From Candidatus Omnitrophota bacterium (GTDB lineage: Bacteria > Omnitrophota > Gorgyraeia > Gygaellales > Profunditerraquicolaceae): a stretch of DNA of 64,000 nt. The stretch covers positions 3,708 through 67,707 of the forward strand of contig JAGVER010000003.1 of the NCBI GenBank assembly GCA_020058085.1, written 5' to 3'. Below, piece after piece: positions 3,283 to 48,397 of this stretch (the stretch's first letter is position 1; every line of letters begins with the position of its first letter). The notes below the pieces were generated by a model. That model did no database searches, had not been told where the DNA came from, and saw nothing but the letters and a program-made list of their open reading frames with translations. The translations under genes were made by a program, and so were the position numbers.

Positions 3283-4515
3283 ATGAGCCAGGAATTATTA
3301 GCAATAATCGAACAAATTGAGAGGGAAAAAGGGATAAAGAAGGAAGTCTTAATTGAGGCAGTTGAGAGTGCCTTACTTAGCGCTGCCAAAAGAGTCATCG
3401 ATCTCAAACCTGATGAAGAACTTAAGGTAGAACTTGACCGAAATACCGGGAAGGTTCGCGCTTATAGAAACGGCGAAGAGATTACTTCTATAGATTTTGG
3501 TCGTATCGCTGCTTCAACTGCGCGACAGGTTATTATTCAGAAGATGCGCGAGGCAGAGAAGGATGTGGTTTTTAATGAGTTTCAAGGCCGGGTCGGAGAG
3601 ATCGTTAGCGGGACGGTATATAGATTTGAGAAGGGAAATGTAATTATAGACCTTTTGGGTAAAGCCGAAGGGATGCTTATTAAACGCGAACAATCCCCAA
3701 AAGAAGAATTTAAGCAAGGGCAGCGTATCCGTGCTTTTCTCTTGGATGTAAAAAAGGAGGCTAGGGGTGCTCAGATTATTTTGTCGCGTACGCATCCTAA
3801 TTTAGTAAAGAAACTTTTTGAACTTGAAGTACCCGAGATCTACGAGGGTATAGTAGAGATAAAAGCTATATCCCGTCAGCCGGGTGAACGTACAAAAATA
3901 TCAGTTTATTCCAAGAATGATAAAGTTGATTCTGTGGGTGCTTGTGTAGGGATGCGCGGGAATAGGGTGAGAAATATTGTTAATGAACTCTATGGGGAGA
4001 AGATTGATATTGTACGTTATAACGAAGATATCCGAGAGTATATTAAAAACGCGCTTTCCCCGGCTAAGGTCGCCGAGATAAAACTGGAAAAAGAAAAATT
4101 GAAAGCCGAGGTTATAGTTGATGATGATCAATTATCTCTTGCTATAGGTAAACATGGCCAGAATGTCCGGCTTGCTTCAAGGCTTATAGGTTGGGAACTC
4201 GATATTCGCACTAAGACTACTCAAGCCCAAGCATTAGTTAAGGAAAAAGAGGATAAGGATTCAGCTGAGGCTAAAGTCCAAGAAGAAGAGCTTGTTGAGA
4301 AATCCAAGAAGAAGGAGAGAAAAAAGAAGAAGTCCGAAGCCTCATTAGAAGAATTATCCGGTTTAGGGGAGAAGACTTTACTTAGTTTGAAAGAAGCCGG
4401 AATAAACTCGTTGCCAGATCTGATTAAGGCAGGAGAAGAAGGCCTGATTAAAATTAAAGGTATTGGTGAGAAGAAAGCGGCGAAGTTAATCGCTGATGCT
4501 AAGAAATTAAAATAA
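3283..4515 (+). CDS. nusA: Transcription termination/antitermination factor NusA
   Basis: N-terminus MSQELLAIIEQIEREKGI, followed by S1 and KH regions, a K/E-rich linker and a C-terminal HhH (GIGEKKAAKL). Confidence 0.95.
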   Translation: MSQELLAIIEQIEREKGIKKEVLIEAVESALLSAAKRVIDLKPDEELKVELDRNTGKVRAYRNGEEITSIDFGRIAASTARQVIIQKMREAEKDVVFNEFQGRVGEIVSGTVYRFEKGNVIIDLLGKAEGMLIKREQSPKEEFKQGQRIRAFLLDVKKEARGAQIILSRTHPNLVKKLFELEVPEIYEGIVEIKAISRQPGERTKISVYSKNDKVDSVGACVGMRGNRVRNIVNELYGEKIDIVRYNEDIREYIKNALSPAKVAEIKLEKEKLKAEVIVDDDQLSLAIGKHGQNVRLASRLIGWELDIRTKTTQAQALVKEKEDKDSAEAKVQEEELVEKSKKKERKKKKSEASLEELSGLGEKTLLSLKEAGINSLPDLIKAGEEGLIKIKGIGEKKAAKLIADAKKLK

Positions 4516-41910: not shown

Positions 41911-42138
41911 TTAAGCTTTCTTAAGATCGCCTTTTTTGATACATTTGGCGCAGACGTAAACTCTTGTAGGTTGGCCTTTAATAAGAATACGTATTTTTTG
42001 CAGGTTGGGAAAGAATTTGCGCATACTCCAGCGGCTGATCTTAGAACCTGTTCCGCCTTTAGCCTTATATTGGCCTTTGCGCGCGACAGTTTTACCTTTG
42101 AGTGCACCTTTTCCACATAAAGCACATTTTTTAAGCAT
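41911..42138 (-). CDS. rpmB: Ribosomal protein L28
   Basis: MLKKCALCGKGALKGKTVA...RKFFPNLQKIRILIKGQPTRVYVCAKCIKKG is the L28 pattern. The overlapping ORF 41898..42125 is the wrong frame. Confidence 0.85.
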   Translation of the reverse strand: MLKKCALCGKGALKGKTVARKGQYKAKGGTGSKISRWSMRKFFPNLQKIRILIKGQPTRVYVCAKCIKKGDLKKA

Positions 42139-42246: not shown

Positions 42247-42304
42247 GGGGACGGTTCTATTTTTCCATTTTTCTAGGTTTCTATTGAAAAATAGAACTGT
42301 CCCC
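42247..42304. promoter_or_regulatory. 18-bp inverted repeat (1 mismatch) between the divergent rpmB and HTH promoters; operator or insulator/terminator hairpin
   Basis: GGGGACGGTTCTATTTTT (42247-42264) pairs with AAAAATAGAACTGTCCCC (42287-42304), followed by TAGTTTTT. A related half-site, GGACAGATAGTTCTA, occurs near 45320. Confidence 0.55.
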
Positions 42305-42371: not shown

Positions 42372-42662
42372 ATGAACAATAAGAACTTTGGAGATTTATT
42401 AACAAGTATCGGACAGGCTAGGAAGATACATAGCGGCAGAATGAAACCCGGGAATATCTCTAAGTTTCATCCAATAATTGTAAAAAGAATACGTAAGAAA
42501 CTCCATAAATCCCAAACCGAATTTGCCTATTTAATCGGAGTTAGCGTTGATACTTTGCAGAATTGGGAACAGGGTAGGAGAAGGCCCGAAGGCCCGGCAT
42601 TGGCATTACTAAGAGTAGCGCAGTCTAATCCGGAAGTTGTTATAAAAGCTCTACATGCATAA
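42372..42662 (+). CDS. XRE-family HTH protein with MqsA/NadS-type antitoxin-like architecture, no cognate toxin ORF adjacent
   Basis: 96 aa. IRKKLHKSQTEFAYLIGVSVDTLQNWEQGRRRPEGPALALLRVAQSNPEVV is a classic HTH with the RxPxGxAxxLL tail. It has its own TTGACA-17-TATACT promoter. Confidence 0.75.
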   Translation: MNNKNFGDLLTSIGQARKIHSGRMKPGNISKFHPIIVKRIRKKLHKSQTEFAYLIGVSVDTLQNWEQGRRRPEGPALALLRVAQSNPEVVIKALHA

Positions 42663-42727: not shown

Positions 42728-42976
42728 TAAATGTCTCTGGCAAGCTTCTCGCTCAGGTCGATTTTGCCACATAAAGTTACTATTTAGGCAATGCCAATGA
42801 TCTTTCGTATTTCGGCGGCAAAACAACTCGCGCTTCGGCTTCTGGCCTTGGCGCTCAAACAGTTTTGCCGTGCCTGTGTTGTCTCCCGCCTATGGCGGTA
42901 TCCACAGGCATTTCCTCAGTGCTCAAGCTCCATTGGCTAAAATCGACATTCGCTCGAACCATGCCAGAGACATTTA
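42728..42976 (+). repeat. ~249-bp element with 15-bp perfect terminal inverted repeats and several internal hairpins (MITE-like or structured ncRNA)
   Basis: TAAATGTCTCTGGCA (42728-42742) is the exact reverse complement of 42962-42976. The sub-terminal arms also pair (GTCGATTTTGCC / GGCTAAAATCGAC). Internal stems include CGGCAAAAC/GTTTTGCCG, GCCTGTG/CACAGGC and CCGCC/GGCGG. Confidence 0.7.
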
Positions 42977-43106: not shown

Positions 43107-44225
43107 ATGTTTGGACAATGGTTGGGCGGGACAATAGGAACAAATAAAGGTTTTTGTGTTTTGAATATAGAACCCGGTGCGCCATTAGAAGGCAGAATAA
43201 TGTTTTTTGACATGGACCAAACAAAGCATTCAATGTGGGCAAGCGTCTCTTTTAAGATAGAAAATGACAAGATAACAGGTAATTTATACAATTATCTGGT
43301 TTTCTACAAAAACGAATTAATAAAAAGCGAGGAATTAAATAAAGAAATCGCGCCTGAAAGATATCCAGTTACTGGCGAAATTAACGGCTCATTTATAGGA
43401 GGAAAGCTCAAGGGTAATTTTAAAACTAATGTAAATACTTTTGGAGAGTTTATTCTTACTAAAACCGTGCTTGGAGAGCCAACTAAGCCTAATCGAGAAA
43501 TGAGTTGGGGTGAATATAAGAAATTTGTCAGCGAGCTTGATCGAACCAACAAAGTCATAATCTTCCGGGGTCAATCCAATAATAATCAAAGATTAGTGAC
43601 TACTTACCATAGGTCAGGTAGGGCGGATTTATTTAGATATCTTGGTGGCGATATCCCAAATTTAGTTCGTTTTATAAATTTGATTCCGCCATACAAGTAT
43701 GATTTAAACAAAATCGGAGATCTTGATGCATTGTTAGGATTAGTTCAGCACCACGAATACCCAACTCCTTTCCTTGATTGGACAGAATCACCTTATATTG
43801 CTGCCTATTTCGCTTATAGAAAAGCAAAAAATGACCAACAGACCGACAAGGTTAGAATTTTCATTTTTGATACTGTTCCCTGGGTAAGTTTTTGGCAGGC
43901 AATAGCTCAAAACACTATATTAATAGCACCTAAGCCCGTTATTTCTATTCATAATCTTACCTCAACGAATAATAACCGAGCTATTCGACAAAAAGCAGTT
44001 TCAGTATTTTCTAATATTGTCGATATGGAAGCTTTTTTTGATGCGTCCAAAGAAACGGGGAAGTTGCCGGATTCTTTTTTTCAAAGAATTGACTTGCCAT
44101 ATTCTGAGAAAGAAGCAGCAATGAATGATCTTTTAGATATGGAGATTAGCACCGCAACATTATTCCCAGGTTTAGATGGGGTTTGTAGGTTCTTAAGTGA
44201 GCAATATTTTGGGAAAATAAATTAA
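43107..44225 (+). CDS. FRG-domain protein with unassigned ~130-aa N-terminal domain
   Basis: VIIFRGQSNNNQRLVTTYHR (the FRG motif at nt 43563-43571) and LGLVQHHEYPTPFLDWTESPYIAAYFA (the QHxGxPTxxLDWTxSP core of the FRG family). Confidence 0.75.
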   Translation: MFGQWLGGTIGTNKGFCVLNIEPGAPLEGRIMFFDMDQTKHSMWASVSFKIENDKITGNLYNYLVFYKNELIKSEELNKEIAPERYPVTGEINGSFIGGKLKGNFKTNVNTFGEFILTKTVLGEPTKPNREMSWGEYKKFVSELDRTNKVIIFRGQSNNNQRLVTTYHRSGRADLFRYLGGDIPNLVRFINLIPPYKYDLNKIGDLDALLGLVQHHEYPTPFLDWTESPYIAAYFAYRKAKNDQQTDKVRIFIFDTVPWVSFWQAIAQNTILIAPKPVISIHNLTSTNNNRAIRQKAVSVFSNIVDMEAFFDASKETGKLPDSFFQRIDLPYSEKEAAMNDLLDMEISTATLFPGLDGVCRFLSEQYFGKIN

Positions 44226-44236
44226 TTCCTATATAA

Positions 44237-44255
44237 TAGGCACATTTTGGGCACA
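44237..44255 (+). repeat. 19-nt direct repeat copy 1, 12 nt after the FRG gene stop
   Basis: TAGGCACATTTTGGGCACA, containing GGCACA-N4-GGGCACA. Confidence 0.7.
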
Positions 44256-44356
44256 AAGCAAAAAAGTGATGTTCTTAACTTGCTGCAAGATAACAGATAA
44301 AAGTTAATTGATGTAGAGCGAGGTGTTCTAATACCATGTTAGAATGAGGGTTGCAA

Positions 44357-45205
44357 ATGAAAGTTATTGCTCCGCTATTCAACTTTTGGTGTAAAGAGGG
44401 AATATCAGAATTTAAAATTACAAAATACTTCTCAATAAAGAAAGAAAAATACAACATAAAGAATGATGATGCAAAAGATTTTTTGTCCAAATATGAAAGA
44501 AGCGATATCTCTGAATGTGATTTTTTGGCAGAGATTGATAATGAGCCCAAAGATTTGAGTCCGGGAGAAATACTGAATGCATTTCTTTTGTCTATCTGGT
44601 TTATAGGACCTACTAAAGTCACAATTACCCATAGATTTGAAGAACCAAATACTATTTCAAGAATGCTGGATAGATTTCAACCTAATAAAAAAGATATATT
44701 TAAAGAAGAGCTATCAAAGGAGGATCTAAATACAGTTGCAAATTATTTCAAGTTGCTAATCAAGATAAGAAGAAGTAAAAAAAGATTATTCACTGCACTT
44801 GCTAATACATATCAAGGATGTATTGCACACCAATGGAAAGTAGCTTTTGTTCTTTTTACTGCAGCATTAGAAGCTATGTTGACATATAGCAGAGATGTGG
44901 GGATAACTAAACGATTATCTAAATCTTATGCTTGTGTAGTAGGAAAGACTAAATACAAAAGAGACCGCTACTATAGGCAATTTTATGGTCTTTACAGTGT
45001 ACGTTCAGATATAATGCATGGAAGAATAAGAAAATATTCAAAACCAGAAGGAAATTTGAAGTCTCTTTCAAAATTAGCAATATTATTAAGAAAACTATGG
45101 CAGGGTATATTAGAGAATGCTGCTTTATTAAATGCTTTAGAAAAAGACGATATGAACAGAAAACATTTTTTCAAGAATTTGGAACAGGGATATATTGCAC
45201 CTTGA
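44357..45205 (+). CDS. HEPN-like protein (Rx4H motif), function unknown (alternative TTG start at 44351)
   Basis: The C-terminal helical region has FTAALEAMLTY ... FYGLYSVRSDIMHGR, with R-S-D-I-M-H at nt 45002-45019. The N-terminal ~140 aa are unassigned. Confidence 0.6.
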   Translation: MKVIAPLFNFWCKEGISEFKITKYFSIKKEKYNIKNDDAKDFLSKYERSDISECDFLAEIDNEPKDLSPGEILNAFLLSIWFIGPTKVTITHRFEEPNTISRMLDRFQPNKKDIFKEELSKEDLNTVANYFKLLIKIRRSKKRLFTALANTYQGCIAHQWKVAFVLFTAALEAMLTYSRDVGITKRLSKSYACVVGKTKYKRDRYYRQFYGLYSVRSDIMHGRIRKYSKPEGNLKSLSKLAILLRKLWQGILENAALLNALEKDDMNRKHFFKNLEQGYIAP

Positions 45206-45226
45206 GAGAACATAATAATTTATTTT

Positions 45227-45245
45227 TAGGCATTTTTTGGGCACA
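45227..45245 (+). repeat. 19-nt direct repeat copy 2, 22 nt after the HEPN-like gene stop
   Basis: TAGGCATTTTTTGGGCACA, identical to copy 1 at 17 of 19 positions and lying 990 bp from it. Confidence 0.7.
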
Positions 45246-45371
45246 TGGTAATTGAAGAAAAATCATAACTAATTATACCATAACAAATTTAACTCATTTT
45301 GAGTTAGGACAGATAGTTCTAACTACTTCTGCTTGGGATTTTTATTTATAAGCGGTATAATTGAAGAGTAA

Positions 45372-45471
45372 TTAGCGGGTGACTTGGTTTGCACCTTGCC
45401 TCAAAGGATAGGCAAGTGCGCCCTTTTGGGCGATTACGAGCAGCATGTTAAGCCAAGGCAGGACCCGCTAA
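45372..45471 (+). repeat. Structured GC-rich element A (outer stem plus two adjacent hairpins) 16 nt upstream of the helicase-nuclease start
   Basis: Outer stem TTAGCGGGT/ACCCGCTAA. Hairpin 1 is GCACCTTGCCT/AGGCAAGTGC. Hairpin 2 is CGCCC-TTTT-GGGCG. Confidence 0.7.
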
Positions 45472-45487
45472 ACACGAAATTATAATC

Positions 45488-48397
45488 ATGAATAAAATAT
45501 TAGAAGGCCTAAATAAGGAGCAGTTGGAGGCGGTGACGCATAAAGAGGGGCCGCTTTTAATTATTGCCGGTGCAGGGACAGGGAAGACTACGGTGATTAG
45601 CCGGAGGATTGCCTGGCTTATCTCTGAAGGTTTGGCCAAGACTGATGAGATTTTAGCGCTTACCTTTACGGATAAAGCCGCTAAAGAGATGCAGGAGCGC
45701 GTGGATATCCTTGTTCCTTATGGATATACAGATATCTGGATATCTACATTTCATGCTTTTGGCGATCGAATCTTGCGTGAGAATTCTTTGATTGCCGGAT
45801 TAAATCCGGATTTTAAGGTTTTATCCCAGAGTGAAGCTACAGTATTCTTCCGCGAACGGCTCTTTCAGTTTACCTTAAATTATTTTCGGCCTTTAGCTGA
45901 TCCTACGCGTTTCATCGAAACACTTATACAATTATTCAGCCGGGCAAAAGATGAGGATATCTCGCCTCAAGAATATATTAAATACGCGCAGGATCTCTTA
46001 ATTAAGGCTAAAGCTGACCAGAAAGATCTAGCTCTGCAGGAAGAATCGCTTAGGGAATCAGAGGTAGCTAATGCTTATGTTAAATATCAGGAGCTTTTAG
46101 CTAAAGAAGGGCTTCTAGATTTTGGTAATCAGTTTTATCTTAGTTTGAATCTCTTGCGTAATCATCCGGCAGTATTAAAGAAGTATCAGAAGCAATTTAA
46201 ATATATCTTAGTTGATGAGTTCCAGGATACAAATTATGCCCAATATCAGTTGGCAAAGATTCTCACCAATAAAGAGCAAAATATTACCGTTACGGGGGAC
46301 GATGACCAGAGTATCTATCGTTGGCGCGGAGCAGCATATAGCAATCTCTTAAATTTTATTAATGAATATCCTGACACTAAAAAAGTAAGCCTTATCAGAA
46401 ATTACCGCTCTACACAGCCAATTTTAGATAGCGCGTATCAACTGATCCAGAATAATAATCCTGAACGTTTTGAGGTAAAAGCGAACATAAATAAGCGGCT
46501 CATTGGTTTAACCAAGGAAGGCCAGCTTCCTAAGCACCTGCATTATGATACTTATTCTACAGAGGCTGATAATGTAGCCAAGATTATTCATGAAAAGGTT
46601 AAATCAGGAGATTTTAGATATAGTGATTTTGCCATTCTTGTGCGTTCAAATTCCGATGCCCAGGGATTTCTCCAGGCGTTGAATATGGAAAATATTCCTT
46701 GGCAATTCAGTGGCAATCAGGGACTTTATTCAAGGGAAGAGGTAAAACTCTGTATTAATTTCTTAAGGGTGACAGCTAATCTCTCGGATTCTTTAAGTTT
46801 GTATTATCTGGTTAGTTCTGAAATCTATGGTTTAAATTTAATTGATCTTAATTTGTGCAATCATTATGCCCGGCGCAGGAATAAATCTCTGTATTCGGTA
46901 TTTAGAGAATTAAATAGTATCCCCGAATTAAAAGAGATAAGCGAGGACTCCTTAAAGAAGATAGAAGGGCTTCTTGCGGATTTAGATAAATATTTGAGGA
47001 TTGCCCGGGAAGAGACTACTGGTAGATTGCTCTATGCTTTTTTAACCGAGACTAGCTATCTAAAGAAATTAACCAGCCTGCAGAACCTAGAGAATGAGGA
47101 TAAGATCCGTAATATTGCCAAATTTTTTACTAATGTTCGGGATTTTGAATTAGTGGCAAAGGAAGACCGGGTGATCAGTTTTGTGAGTTATCTTAATTTA
47201 TTAATTGAAGCAGGAGATGATCCGCCTACAGTAGAAGCGGATTTAGATACTGATGCAGTCAATATACTCACAATACATAAGGCTAAAGGGCTTGAGTTCA
47301 GAGTTGTTTTCTTAGTTGGCCTGGTGCAAGGGCGTTTTCCCTGGCCGCACAGGTCAGAAGCAATTGAATTACCGGATGCATTGATAAAAGAAGTTTTGCC
47401 TAAAGGCGATTTTCATACTCATGAAGAACGCAGGTTATTTTATGTTGGGATGACTCGCGCAAAAGAGGAGTTATATCTAACCAGCGCCGAGGATTATGGC
47501 GGCAAGCGCCTGCGTAAGGTAAGCGCATTTGTTTTTGAGGCGCTAGGGACAGAAGCTAAAGAGAAAGAGAAGAAAAAGGCAAGCGCTATGGAGGCGATCG
47601 CACGTTTTGCCCCCAAGAAAGATTCGGCTAAGTCTCAAGATACAAAAATAGACGAGACTAAGCCTGTAAAATTAAGTTATTACCAGATCGATGATTATAT
47701 TACCTGTCCTTTAAAATACAAATACGTAAATATTTTGCGCGTTCCGATTATGGAGCATCATACGGTTATCTATGGCCGGGCAATGCATGAGGCAGTTACT
47801 CGGTATTTTCAGTTCAAGATGGCTGGCAGAAAAATGGAGTTGGATGATATCTTGAATGCTTTTGAATCAAGTTTTGACCCGCAGGGATTCTTGGATCAGT
47901 ATCATCAGGAGGAGAGGTCTAGGGTAGGCAGGGAGGCTTTAGTGAAGTTCTTCCACATGGAGGAAGAGTGCGATAGCAACCCAAAGTTTATTGAGAAAGA
48001 ATTTTCTTTTATCTTTGAGGGTAATAAAATCGCCGGAAGGTTTGACCGGGTAGATGAGGATGCTGAAGGGGATATTATTATTGATTTTAAGACCTCGGAA
48101 ATTAAGGCTCAAGATGTTGCGGACAAAAAAGCTCAAGAGAGCCTGCAGTTGGCCCTCTATGCTTTGGCTTATCAGCAGATATTTGGTAGATTGCCGCTGC
48201 GAGTTGAGCTATTTTTTCTTGAGTCTGGAATTATCGGGAGTTCTGTTATTGAAGAAGATGGCTTAGAAAAGATTAAGGAGAAGATTCGGATAGTATCTGA
48301 TGGGATACGCAGCCAGAATTTTAAGGCTACTCCTGCTTATATGGCATGTACATATTGTGCTTATAACCAGATTTGCCCTGCAGCTAAAGCCCGTTAG
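45488..48397 (+). CDS. UvrD/PcrA-family helicase fused to a C-terminal Cas4/AddB-like Cys4 PD-(D/E)xK nuclease
   Basis: AGAGTGKTT, VDEFQDTN, YRST, TIHKAKGLEF and VGMTRAKEEL are the helicase motifs. The C-terminus has YITCPLKY ... IIIDFKT ... QLALYALAY ... CTYCAYNQIC (one Cys plus CxxCx5C). Confidence 0.85.
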   Translation: MNKILEGLNKEQLEAVTHKEGPLLIIAGAGTGKTTVISRRIAWLISEGLAKTDEILALTFTDKAAKEMQERVDILVPYGYTDIWISTFHAFGDRILRENSLIAGLNPDFKVLSQSEATVFFRERLFQFTLNYFRPLADPTRFIETLIQLFSRAKDEDISPQEYIKYAQDLLIKAKADQKDLALQEESLRESEVANAYVKYQELLAKEGLLDFGNQFYLSLNLLRNHPAVLKKYQKQFKYILVDEFQDTNYAQYQLAKILTNKEQNITVTGDDDQSIYRWRGAAYSNLLNFINEYPDTKKVSLIRNYRSTQPILDSAYQLIQNNNPERFEVKANINKRLIGLTKEGQLPKHLHYDTYSTEADNVAKIIHEKVKSGDFRYSDFAILVRSNSDAQGFLQALNMENIPWQFSGNQGLYSREEVKLCINFLRVTANLSDSLSLYYLVSSEIYGLNLIDLNLCNHYARRRNKSLYSVFRELNSIPELKEISEDSLKKIEGLLADLDKYLRIAREETTGRLLYAFLTETSYLKKLTSLQNLENEDKIRNIAKFFTNVRDFELVAKEDRVISFVSYLNLLIEAGDDPPTVEADLDTDAVNILTIHKAKGLEFRVVFLVGLVQGRFPWPHRSEAIELPDALIKEVLPKGDFHTHEERRLFYVGMTRAKEELYLTSAEDYGGKRLRKVSAFVFEALGTEAKEKEKKKASAMEAIARFAPKKDSAKSQDTKIDETKPVKLSYYQIDDYITCPLKYKYVNILRVPIMEHHTVIYGRAMHEAVTRYFQFKMAGRKMELDDILNAFESSFDPQGFLDQYHQEERSRVGREALVKFFHMEEECDSNPKFIEKEFSFIFEGNKIAGRFDRVDEDAEGDIIIDFKTSEIKAQDVADKKAQESLQLALYALAYQQIFGRLPLRVELFFLESGIIGSSVIEEDGLEKIKEKIRIVSDGIRSQNFKATPAYMACTYCAYNQICPAAKAR

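Follow-up and report, generated by a model that had tools for sequence, protein, structure and literature searches.

A compact, stand-alone HEPN-like protein family with an N-terminal domain of its own, described from an Omnitrophota genome

HEPN ribonucleases (RNases) recur as effectors in bacterial immunity, with Cas13, Csm6, ApeA, DARNA, RnlA and PrrC as examples, and for most of these immune RNases it is still an open question how infection is sensed. Here we describe a HEPN-like gene of a Candidatus Omnitrophota bacterium (assembly GCA_020058085.1, contig JAGVER010000003.1), which lies in a stretch of 64,000 nucleotides (positions 3,708 to 67,707 of the forward strand). This whole stretch is referred to as the window, and all positions are counted from its first letter. 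The gene product is best described as belonging to an uncurated, compact, stand-alone HEPN family that possesses its own N-terminal domain.

The canonical HEPN core is a four-helix up-down bundle, in which the motif Rx4-6H lies at the end of core helix 3 and the beginning of the loop leading to helix 4, and the arginine is directly followed by a polar residue, mostly N, D or H (PMC3710099). [quoted passage not shown] Characterised HEPN enzymes are metal-independent endoRNases whose activity requires both R and H (PMC3710099). The single-protein systems ApeA and DARNA illustrate how such an activity can be controlled. A second domain senses the infection signal, namely deoxydinucleotides or single-stranded DNA (ssDNA) presented by the phage single-stranded DNA-binding protein, and dimers of the HEPN domain form the active site; upon activation, both proteins cut tRNA anticodon loops and infection is aborted (bioRxiv 10.64898/2026.01.26.701840, 10.64898/2026.02.22.705581). 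In the HEPN dimers of DARNA, Csm6 and HepT, the two motif histidines are reported to be about 8 Å from each other.

The gene and its conserved residues

The gene, the two parts of its product and the motif that first drew attention to it are located as follows.

44357 to 45205, plus strand: HEPN-like gene, 282 amino acids plus stop codon, with ATG 44357 as the likely start
44351 (TTG) to 45205, plus strand: mechanical open reading frame (ORF) of the same gene, as given in the ORF list
44357 to 44692, plus strand: conserved N-terminal domain, residues 1-112 (conservation, low-depth model)
44693 to 45202, plus strand: C-terminal all-helical HEPN-like domain, residues 113-282 (AlphaFold2 model, hhalign)
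45002 to 45019, plus strand: Rx4H motif R216-S-D-I-M-H221, followed by G222, the predicted catalytic site (coordinates, conservation)

This ORF is a real, conserved gene. The N-termini of its homologues read M-x-x-x-(A/S)-P-L-F and align to MKVIAPLF of the window protein, which makes ATG 44357 the likely start and gives a protein of 282 residues. Four close homologues with 43-58% identity were found by a word-indexed search, which yielded almost no further homologues with a 115-sequence profile. An exhaustive profile search covering 1.84 billion cluster representatives recovered 1383 representatives of the family at E<=1e-3, of which 225 remain at E<=1e-10 and 128 at E<=1e-30; the members are mostly 280-300 residues long and are matched end to end. 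Their hosts include metagenome-assembled genomes (MAGs) of Deltaproteobacteria, Ignavibacteria, Georgfuchsia, Binatia and Rhodospirillum, the family is also present at 25 metagenome loci, and public records name its proteins 'hypothetical protein'.

A first-pass annotation, made from the letters alone, had recognised the segment R-S-D-I-M-H at 45002-45019 and the stretch FTAALEAMLTY upstream of it, and both are indeed present, the former at residues 216-221 and the latter beginning at residue 167 (nucleotide 44855). The pattern Rx4-6H occurs once in the window protein, as R216-x4-H221. By itself the Rx4H motif is weak evidence, because 22% of shuffles of the same protein carry one (52% carry Rx4-6H).

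The homologues speak more clearly. A set of 115 homologues, which are 22-60% identical to the query, retains R216 in 113 members and H221 in 114, whereby the HEPN reading survives one of the two refutation tests that the first-pass annotation had set beforehand, a lack of conservation of these two residues. G222 is kept in 112 of the 115 and E172 in 114; the residue after the arginine, 217, is S in 105 and N in four. Further near-invariant positions complete the list W81, R143, W160, E172, L175, Y213, R216, S217, H221, G222, R245, W248 and R268. Judged from these alignments, the conservation, unlike the bare motif, is beyond chance.

Two domains of the predicted protein

The C-terminal domain (residues 113-282) was modelled with AlphaFold2 from an alignment of 117 sequences. 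The model is all-alpha and of high confidence (predicted local distance difference test, pLDDT, 96.1; predicted template modelling score 0.90), with helices at residues 121-140, 143-155, 160-175, 183-195, 199-220, 230-253, 255-261 and 265-276 in full-length numbering. The following elements are proposed to make up the part of the HEPN core that surrounds the motif.

44834 to 44881, plus strand: proposed HEPN core helix 2, residues 160-175, with E172 (codon 44870-44872) within AALEAMLTY (model, conservation)
44903 to 44941, plus strand: inserted helix, residues 183-195, that separates proposed core helices 2 and 3 (model)
44951 to 45016, plus strand: proposed HEPN core helix 3, residues 199-220, ending in R216-S-D-I-M (model)
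45044 to 45115, plus strand: proposed HEPN core helix 4, residues 230-253, with the near-invariant R245 and W248 (model, conservation)

In the model H221 is the first non-helical residue after helix 199-220, and the next long helix is 230-253. The helical setting that had been claimed for the motif is thus borne out by a confident model, and the predicted secondary-structure layout of the domain fits HEPN as published (PMC3710099).

Profile comparisons link the same region to annotated HEPN proteins. A tblastn search of the window protein against plasmids gave a weak match (E 2e-3, residues 153-234) to a Cronobacter gene annotated 'HEPN domain-containing protein'. When aligned by hhalign, the family profile matches the product of this gene, WP_175299785.1, with 96.9% probability, and the alignment of its relatives, one of which is named 'Apea-like HEPN domain-containing protein' in UniRef, with 98.2% (E 5e-14). 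In the latter comparison the columns L-E-A-L-L fall on L-E-A-x-x and R-S-D-I-x-H-G on R-S-K-L-V-H-G of the WP_175299785.1 family. With the consensus of the C-terminal domain as query, tblastn matched 29 plasmid records, 25 of them on genes annotated 'HEPN domain-containing protein'; the genera concerned are Klebsiella, Enterobacter, Cronobacter, Exiguobacterium, Priestia and Listeria, as well as Nostoc, Dolichospermum, Thalassospira, Leisingera and Sagittula. Eight of these annotated HEPN proteins, from Bacillota, Cyanobacteriota and Pseudomonadota, were then compared. The matching region is C-terminal in seven of them (322-430 residues), and the eighth is a stand-alone domain of 122 residues. 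Their mutual identity is 17-33%, yet L-E, Y-x-x-R-S and H are invariant, and E172 is aligned to this invariant L-E. The family profile matches the alignment of the eight with 98.6% probability (E 1.3e-15) over proposed helices 2 to 4, the comparators in all these hhalign runs being automatic annotations and not curated seed alignments. Weak PADLOC matches of the 115 homologues point in a similar direction: nine of 20 member matches are to HEPN models, namely six to CARF_HEPN, two to Cas13-ApeA (best 4.5e-4) and one to Csx1.

Several results weigh against the HEPN assignment. The window protein has no significant match in Pfam, NCBIfam or PHROGs, and neither the 115 homologues nor the family consensus sequences have one in Pfam. 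The best Pfam match among the homologues is to PF18739 at E=0.054, by one member; the gathering threshold is not reached for PF18739 HEPN_Apea or for any other Pfam HEPN model. PADLOC gives one weak match for the window protein and none to ApeA, and searches of PDB sequences with the single sequence and with profiles returned nothing significant. WP_175299785.1 itself matches no Pfam or NCBIfam HEPN model and its family no Pfam HEPN model, so that the link to HEPN ends in annotation. In addition, the arginine of the window protein is followed by Ser, still polar, instead of the typical N, D or H, and E172 stands in the context L-E-x-L-L-T-Y rather than Ex3[K/R]. Structure searches with Foldseek found no significant neighbour for the C-terminal model in PDB and BFVD, nor for the full-length model (pLDDT 70.6) in PDB. 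The best E-values were 0.4-1 for both models, and the sole HEPN structure listed, 8xdj, appeared at E=2.7 with the poorer full-length model. The structural comparison that the first-pass annotation had called for is thus an indirect one: the all-alpha character and the helix order would suit a HEPN fold, and Foldseek gave no significant superposition on any HEPN structure.

Foldseek resolves small helical bundles poorly; we therefore read its null result as uninformative rather than negative, the more so as those who worked on ApeA depended on another tool. The ApeA authors required GTalign to detect HepT as the nearest structure (bioRxiv 10.64898/2026.01.26.701840 / 10.64898/2026.02.22.705581). 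Taken together, the conservation of R and H, the helix layout and profile matches of 98.2-98.6% to annotated HEPN proteins support the assignment made in the first pass. By profile comparison the C-terminal domain is homologous to annotated HEPN proteins, and it very probably belongs to the HEPN superfamily.

The N-terminal part had been left unassigned, and it has no family match in library scans, consensus sequence included, nor does it align by hhalign to the N-terminal regions of annotated HEPN proteins. Its extent had been put at about 140 residues and is about 112, because the helical part begins at residue 121. The domain is conserved at P6, L43/S44, E47, N74, W81, P85, F94, R102 and D105-R106-F107, with patches APLxxF, LS..E, HWL and RxLDRF (R102 to F107). 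A full-length model, which was built from a five-sequence alignment and is mediocre overall, has a mixed alpha/beta arrangement of strands and helices over residues 1-83 (block pLDDT 66-89); confidence is low over residues 85-116, the linker that bears the conserved RxLDRF, and the C-terminal part of this model is helical.

Proposed function, rival explanations and surroundings

How could such a protein act? The C-terminal ~165 residues would constitute a HEPN domain of the ApeA-like clade, marked by the signature L-E-x-L-L ... Y-x-x-R-S-x-(I/V)-x-H-G. If it acts as characterised HEPN enzymes do, it may be a metal-independent endoribonuclease, whose active site would be formed by R216, S217 and H221 from helix 3 together with E172 from helix 2, and homodimerisation probably completes this site. 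The N-terminal ~112 residues are most likely a sensory or regulatory module that would keep the RNase inactive until a trigger is received. The whole could then serve as a single-gene abortive-infection or toxin-type defence by the cleavage of tRNA or mRNA.

That this particular protein is an RNase, dimerises, is gated by its N-terminal domain and serves in defence is what we infer, and not all parts are equally firm. Analogy with known enzymes makes it probable that the HEPN domain is an active RNase. It makes a function in defence with the N-terminal domain as the sensor conceivable, with the chances somewhat short of even. The reading as a whole, a sensor-gated HEPN RNase in single-gene abortive-infection or toxin-type defence, appears rather likely to us. 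The gene stands alone, is patchily distributed across phyla and tends to occur among mobile, restriction and toxin-antitoxin genes; single-gene defence is therefore its likeliest role. We further speculate that the family represents a previously unrecognised minimal single-gene abortive-infection system, in which a novel N-terminal domain (APLxxF ... HWL ... NxFLLALW ... RxLDRF) senses an infection cue and releases the HEPN RNase, possibly encoded here on a ~1-kb repeat-bounded cassette. This proposal is bold and on balance unlikely; if true, the protein would be one of the smallest sensor-effector HEPN defence proteins.

The alternatives concern in part the immediate surroundings of the gene. 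It sits in a low-GC islet that has rpmB (41911-42138, minus strand) on one side and, downstream, a gene at 45488-48397, identified by eye as a UvrD/PcrA-like helicase gene, on the other. The features of this islet are as follows.

42372 to 42662, plus strand: NadS-family, MqsA-like helix-turn-helix (HTH) protein, 96 amino acids (NCBIfam NF041265 at 2.2e-18)
43107 to 44225, plus strand: FRG-domain protein, 372 amino acids, context and not a conserved partner (Pfam, PADLOC)
44209 to 44237, plus strand: sigma-70-like TTGGGA-17-TATAAT, 10/12, overlapping the end of the FRG gene (consensus match only)
44237 to 44255, plus strand: upstream copy of a 19-nt direct repeat, TAGGCACATTTTGGGCACA (repeat search)
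44337 to 44345, plus strand: extended -10-like TGtTAGAAT (read from the sequence)
44346 to 44350, plus strand: Shine-Dalgarno-like GAGGG, ending 6 nt before ATG 44357 (read from the sequence)
45227 to 45245, plus strand: downstream copy of the 19-nt direct repeat, TAGGCATTTTTTGGGCACA, beginning 22 nt past the stop codon (repeat search)

The product of the FRG gene matches Pfam FRG PF08867 (9.5e-17) and PDC-S15 (1.9e-35), a candidate defence family in PADLOC. According to a published proposal, FRG domains act as NADase effectors of the ADP-ribosyltransferase (ART) superfamily in prokaryotic immunity (PMC9503650). The direct repeat, TAGGCA(CA/TT)TTTTGGGCACA (= TAGGCAyyTTTTGGGCACA), brackets the HEPN-like gene with 990 nt from start to start. 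It has only two copies in the 64 kb, whereas 0 of 100 shuffles give two, and the sequence around each copy is more weakly similar across about 100 nt. The TATAAT box stands immediately before the first copy. The repeat could be an operator or another regulatory site, or the scar of a cassette insertion.

That the C-terminal domain is instead an inert helical binder of nucleic acid, of a ligand or of another protein, unrelated or distantly related to HEPN and using RSxxxHG for binding, has a low probability in our judgement. The lack of a significant match to any curated HEPN hidden Markov model or by Foldseek would agree with it, as would the chance occurrence of Rx4H in 22% of shuffles, and non-catalytic HEPN or HEPN-like domains are documented, for instance in nucleotidyltransferase-fused and MtlR families (PMC3710099). 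Such non-catalytic lineages, however, characteristically lose R or H (PMC3710099), whereas here R, H and E are each present in at least 113 of the 115 homologues. The same three columns are likewise invariant in independently annotated HEPN proteins, with profile-profile probabilities of at least 98%. A mobile passenger is less probable still: the gene would be cargo of a small cassette bounded by the 19-nt repeats, with a role in addiction or stabilisation and not in phage defence. This would account for a pair of repeats that bracket the gene and occur nowhere else in the window, as well as for the GC content of the HEPN-like gene, which lies below that of its surroundings (0.30-0.32 versus 0.38-0.42). 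Homologues found between IS3 copies in an Ignavibacteria genome, and related HEPN genes that adjoin partition genes on plasmids encoding capsid or tail-fibre proteins, would fit as well. Yet neither of the two homologue loci searched (L001, L002) contains the repeat, the gene has no recombinase or integrase gene next to it in the window, and the repeats could equally be regulatory sites.

We give the least credence to a two-gene system, for example of toxin-antitoxin or sensor-effector type, in which the HEPN-like protein would be the effector or partner of the upstream FRG gene or the NadS/MqsA-like HTH gene. All three genes share one islet between rpmB and the helicase gene, and the FRG gene, with its PDC-S15 match, ends 131 nt upstream on the same strand. 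A sigma-70-like promoter match, however, lies in this very gap. Clustering of neighbouring ORFs all against all over 33 loci gave no neighbour family common to more than three of them, and the loci that do share families are closely related contigs. At the 32 other homologue loci there is no FRG neighbour, and no neighbour of FRG-like or HTH type falls into one cluster with its counterpart in the window. HepT-type toxins, moreover, have an MNT nucleotidyltransferase encoded next to them as their partner, and there is no such gene here. In the absence of a recurring neighbour across the 33 loci, we rejected the FRG-HEPN pair. The sensor-gated, single-gene HEPN RNase is the reading that we favour.

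The wider neighbourhoods of the family agree with a gene that moves. Individual neighbours of homologues include MazEF, a LexA-like peptidase, proteins whose matches to AHJR-like and Mrr-like nuclease domains are weak (sub-threshold or borderline), and IS3-type transposase-like ORF pairs (duplicated 96- and 251-residue ORFs; by eye). The HEPN-like gene is a stand-alone, horizontally mobile accessory gene that tends toward variable regions. In the Ignavibacteria MAG (L004, 5236-12320) the homologue is flanked by repeated IS3-type transposase-like pairs with identical ORFs of 96 and 251 residues, assigned by eye; the locus also encodes a protein that matches an Mrr-like nuclease domain at a borderline Pfam score, and it holds a cluster of ATP-grasp (RimK/MvdD-like) genes. 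On the Cronobacter plasmid pCsaCS931a (L009, 1356-2564) and on a Klebsiella plasmid (L012, 1700-2872), the HEPN genes are divergent from a partition ATPase gene, which is annotated as MipZ in the former and as AAA family ATPase in the latter. Both plasmids, of ~50-110 kb, also encode capsid or tail-fibre proteins, which suggests that they are phage-plasmids with an ApeA-like HEPN gene beside the partition locus.

Two starts of transcription can be considered for the HEPN-like gene. The first-pass annotation had noted the extended -10-like TGtTAGAAT and a possibly near-leaderless mRNA; the box exists, one base to the right of the 44336-44344 given there. It ends 11 nt before the ATG, and transcription that begins 6-8 nt past it would give a leader of ~4-5 nt. 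GAGGG is situated between box and ATG and would be excluded from a transcript beginning just past that box; the upstream regions of two homologues have no clear Shine-Dalgarno sequence. The box has no -35 match and does not appear in the results of the two-hexamer scan. The promoter match at 44209-44237 would instead yield a leader of ~110 nt, and the sigma-70-like sites of the region are not enriched (12 found versus 11.2 expected by chance). A sigma-54 reading of the 19-nt repeat, based on its GG-N10-GC spacing, was rejected, the repeat not being within two mismatches of TGGCAC-N5-TTGCW, and this pattern is not enriched in the window (16 matches versus 19.6 expected).

The islet has further features of its own. 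About 130 N-terminal residues of the FRG protein are without assignment, and the HTH protein is antitoxin-like, with no obvious toxin ORF of at least 50 amino acids adjoining it. The 444-nt gap between the HTH and FRG genes contains an inverted repeat (42728-42765 / 42939-42976) with 38-nt arms that are 82% complementary and 173 nt apart, which may be a remnant of a miniature inverted-repeat transposable element (MITE)-like or other mobile element, and a tighter 22-nt hairpin with 91% complementarity is located at 42247-42304. An RNA-like element of ~100 nt (45372-45471, plus strand), GC-rich and multi-branched, is found just upstream of the helicase gene (ATG 45488); its minimum free energy is -45.3 kcal/mol (z=-4.67), a stability matched by 0 of 200 shuffles. 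The element follows a sigma-70-like TTGGGA-17-TATAAT at 45333-45361 and contains AGCAGC...CCAAGGCAG, by eye a resemblance to domain IV of the signal recognition particle (SRP) RNA, without an Rfam match. Rfam gave no match for the element at gathering score or at E<=10 in a permissive scan of 45200-45520, and its scan of the window returned no known RNA. Possibly it is a leader, a riboswitch or a small RNA of an undescribed kind.

Comparison with known systems

ApeA, the ApeA/BMEI1217 family with the model PF18739 HEPN_Apea (Anantharaman et al. 2013), is likewise a single polypeptide with a non-catalytic N-terminal part and a C-terminal Rx4H HEPN domain, and ApeA-like HEPN proteins are likewise encoded by stand-alone genes of patchy occurrence in defence or mobile surroundings. 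Those detectable relatives that are closest to the window protein are annotated as HEPN or Apea-like HEPN proteins and have L-E ... Y-x-x-R-S-x-x-x-H-G in common with it. Unlike ApeA, the window protein remains below threshold for PF18739 and for the ApeA-type models of PADLOC, and its ~112-residue N-terminal domain is unrelated by sequence. Ec2ApeA, which reaches at least residue 583, comprises an N-terminal domain (1-198), then a Mid domain (199-309) and then a HEPN domain (335-583) that is split and carries insertions, whereas the window protein has 282 residues. Membership in the ApeA system was hence rejected, given the lack of an ApeA model match, about half the length and a different N-terminal part.

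The plasmid HEPN proteins of about 320-430 residues (WP_175299785.1, Klebsiella WP_048255544.1, Exiguobacterium WP_238240166.1 and Listeria WP_031642496.1) have homologous C-terminal domains and are also products of stand-alone genes. Their E and RSxxxHG columns are aligned with those of the window protein (hhalign 96.9-98.6%), while their N-terminal regions are longer, about 200-300 residues, and do not align to its own.

The HepT/MntA (HEPN-MNT) type II/VII toxins, which represent minimal HEPN proteins (PDB 5YEP, 7AE8, 8xdj), similarly possess a small helical Rx4-6H domain, and by analogy a dimeric RNase action would be expected of both. Unlike HepT, the window protein has an additional N-terminal domain, further helices on either side of the core, and Ser after the arginine. 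A toxin-antitoxin system of HepT/MntA type was rejected, as the neighbours are the FRG and helicase genes and no MNT gene is adjacent.

Altogether, the family is compact (~112 + ~165 residues), widespread and partnerless, and lies beyond the curated annotation models; a profile built for it would improve the annotation of defence islands. Nothing is overturned by its description, as further HEPN families with novel N-terminal fusion partners are expected by the field. If active in defence, its small size could make it a tractable model of how a sensor gates a HEPN active site. A further system for comparison is DARNA, an ssDNA-activated tRNA anticodon nuclease that combines HEPN with a helical sensor. 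There, too, one protein suffices, and HEPN is gated by a second domain, as is proposed for the window protein; in DARNA, however, the order is reversed, with an N-terminal HEPN domain in a protein of 456 residues that forms a dodecamer, and no sequence relationship to the window protein was detected.

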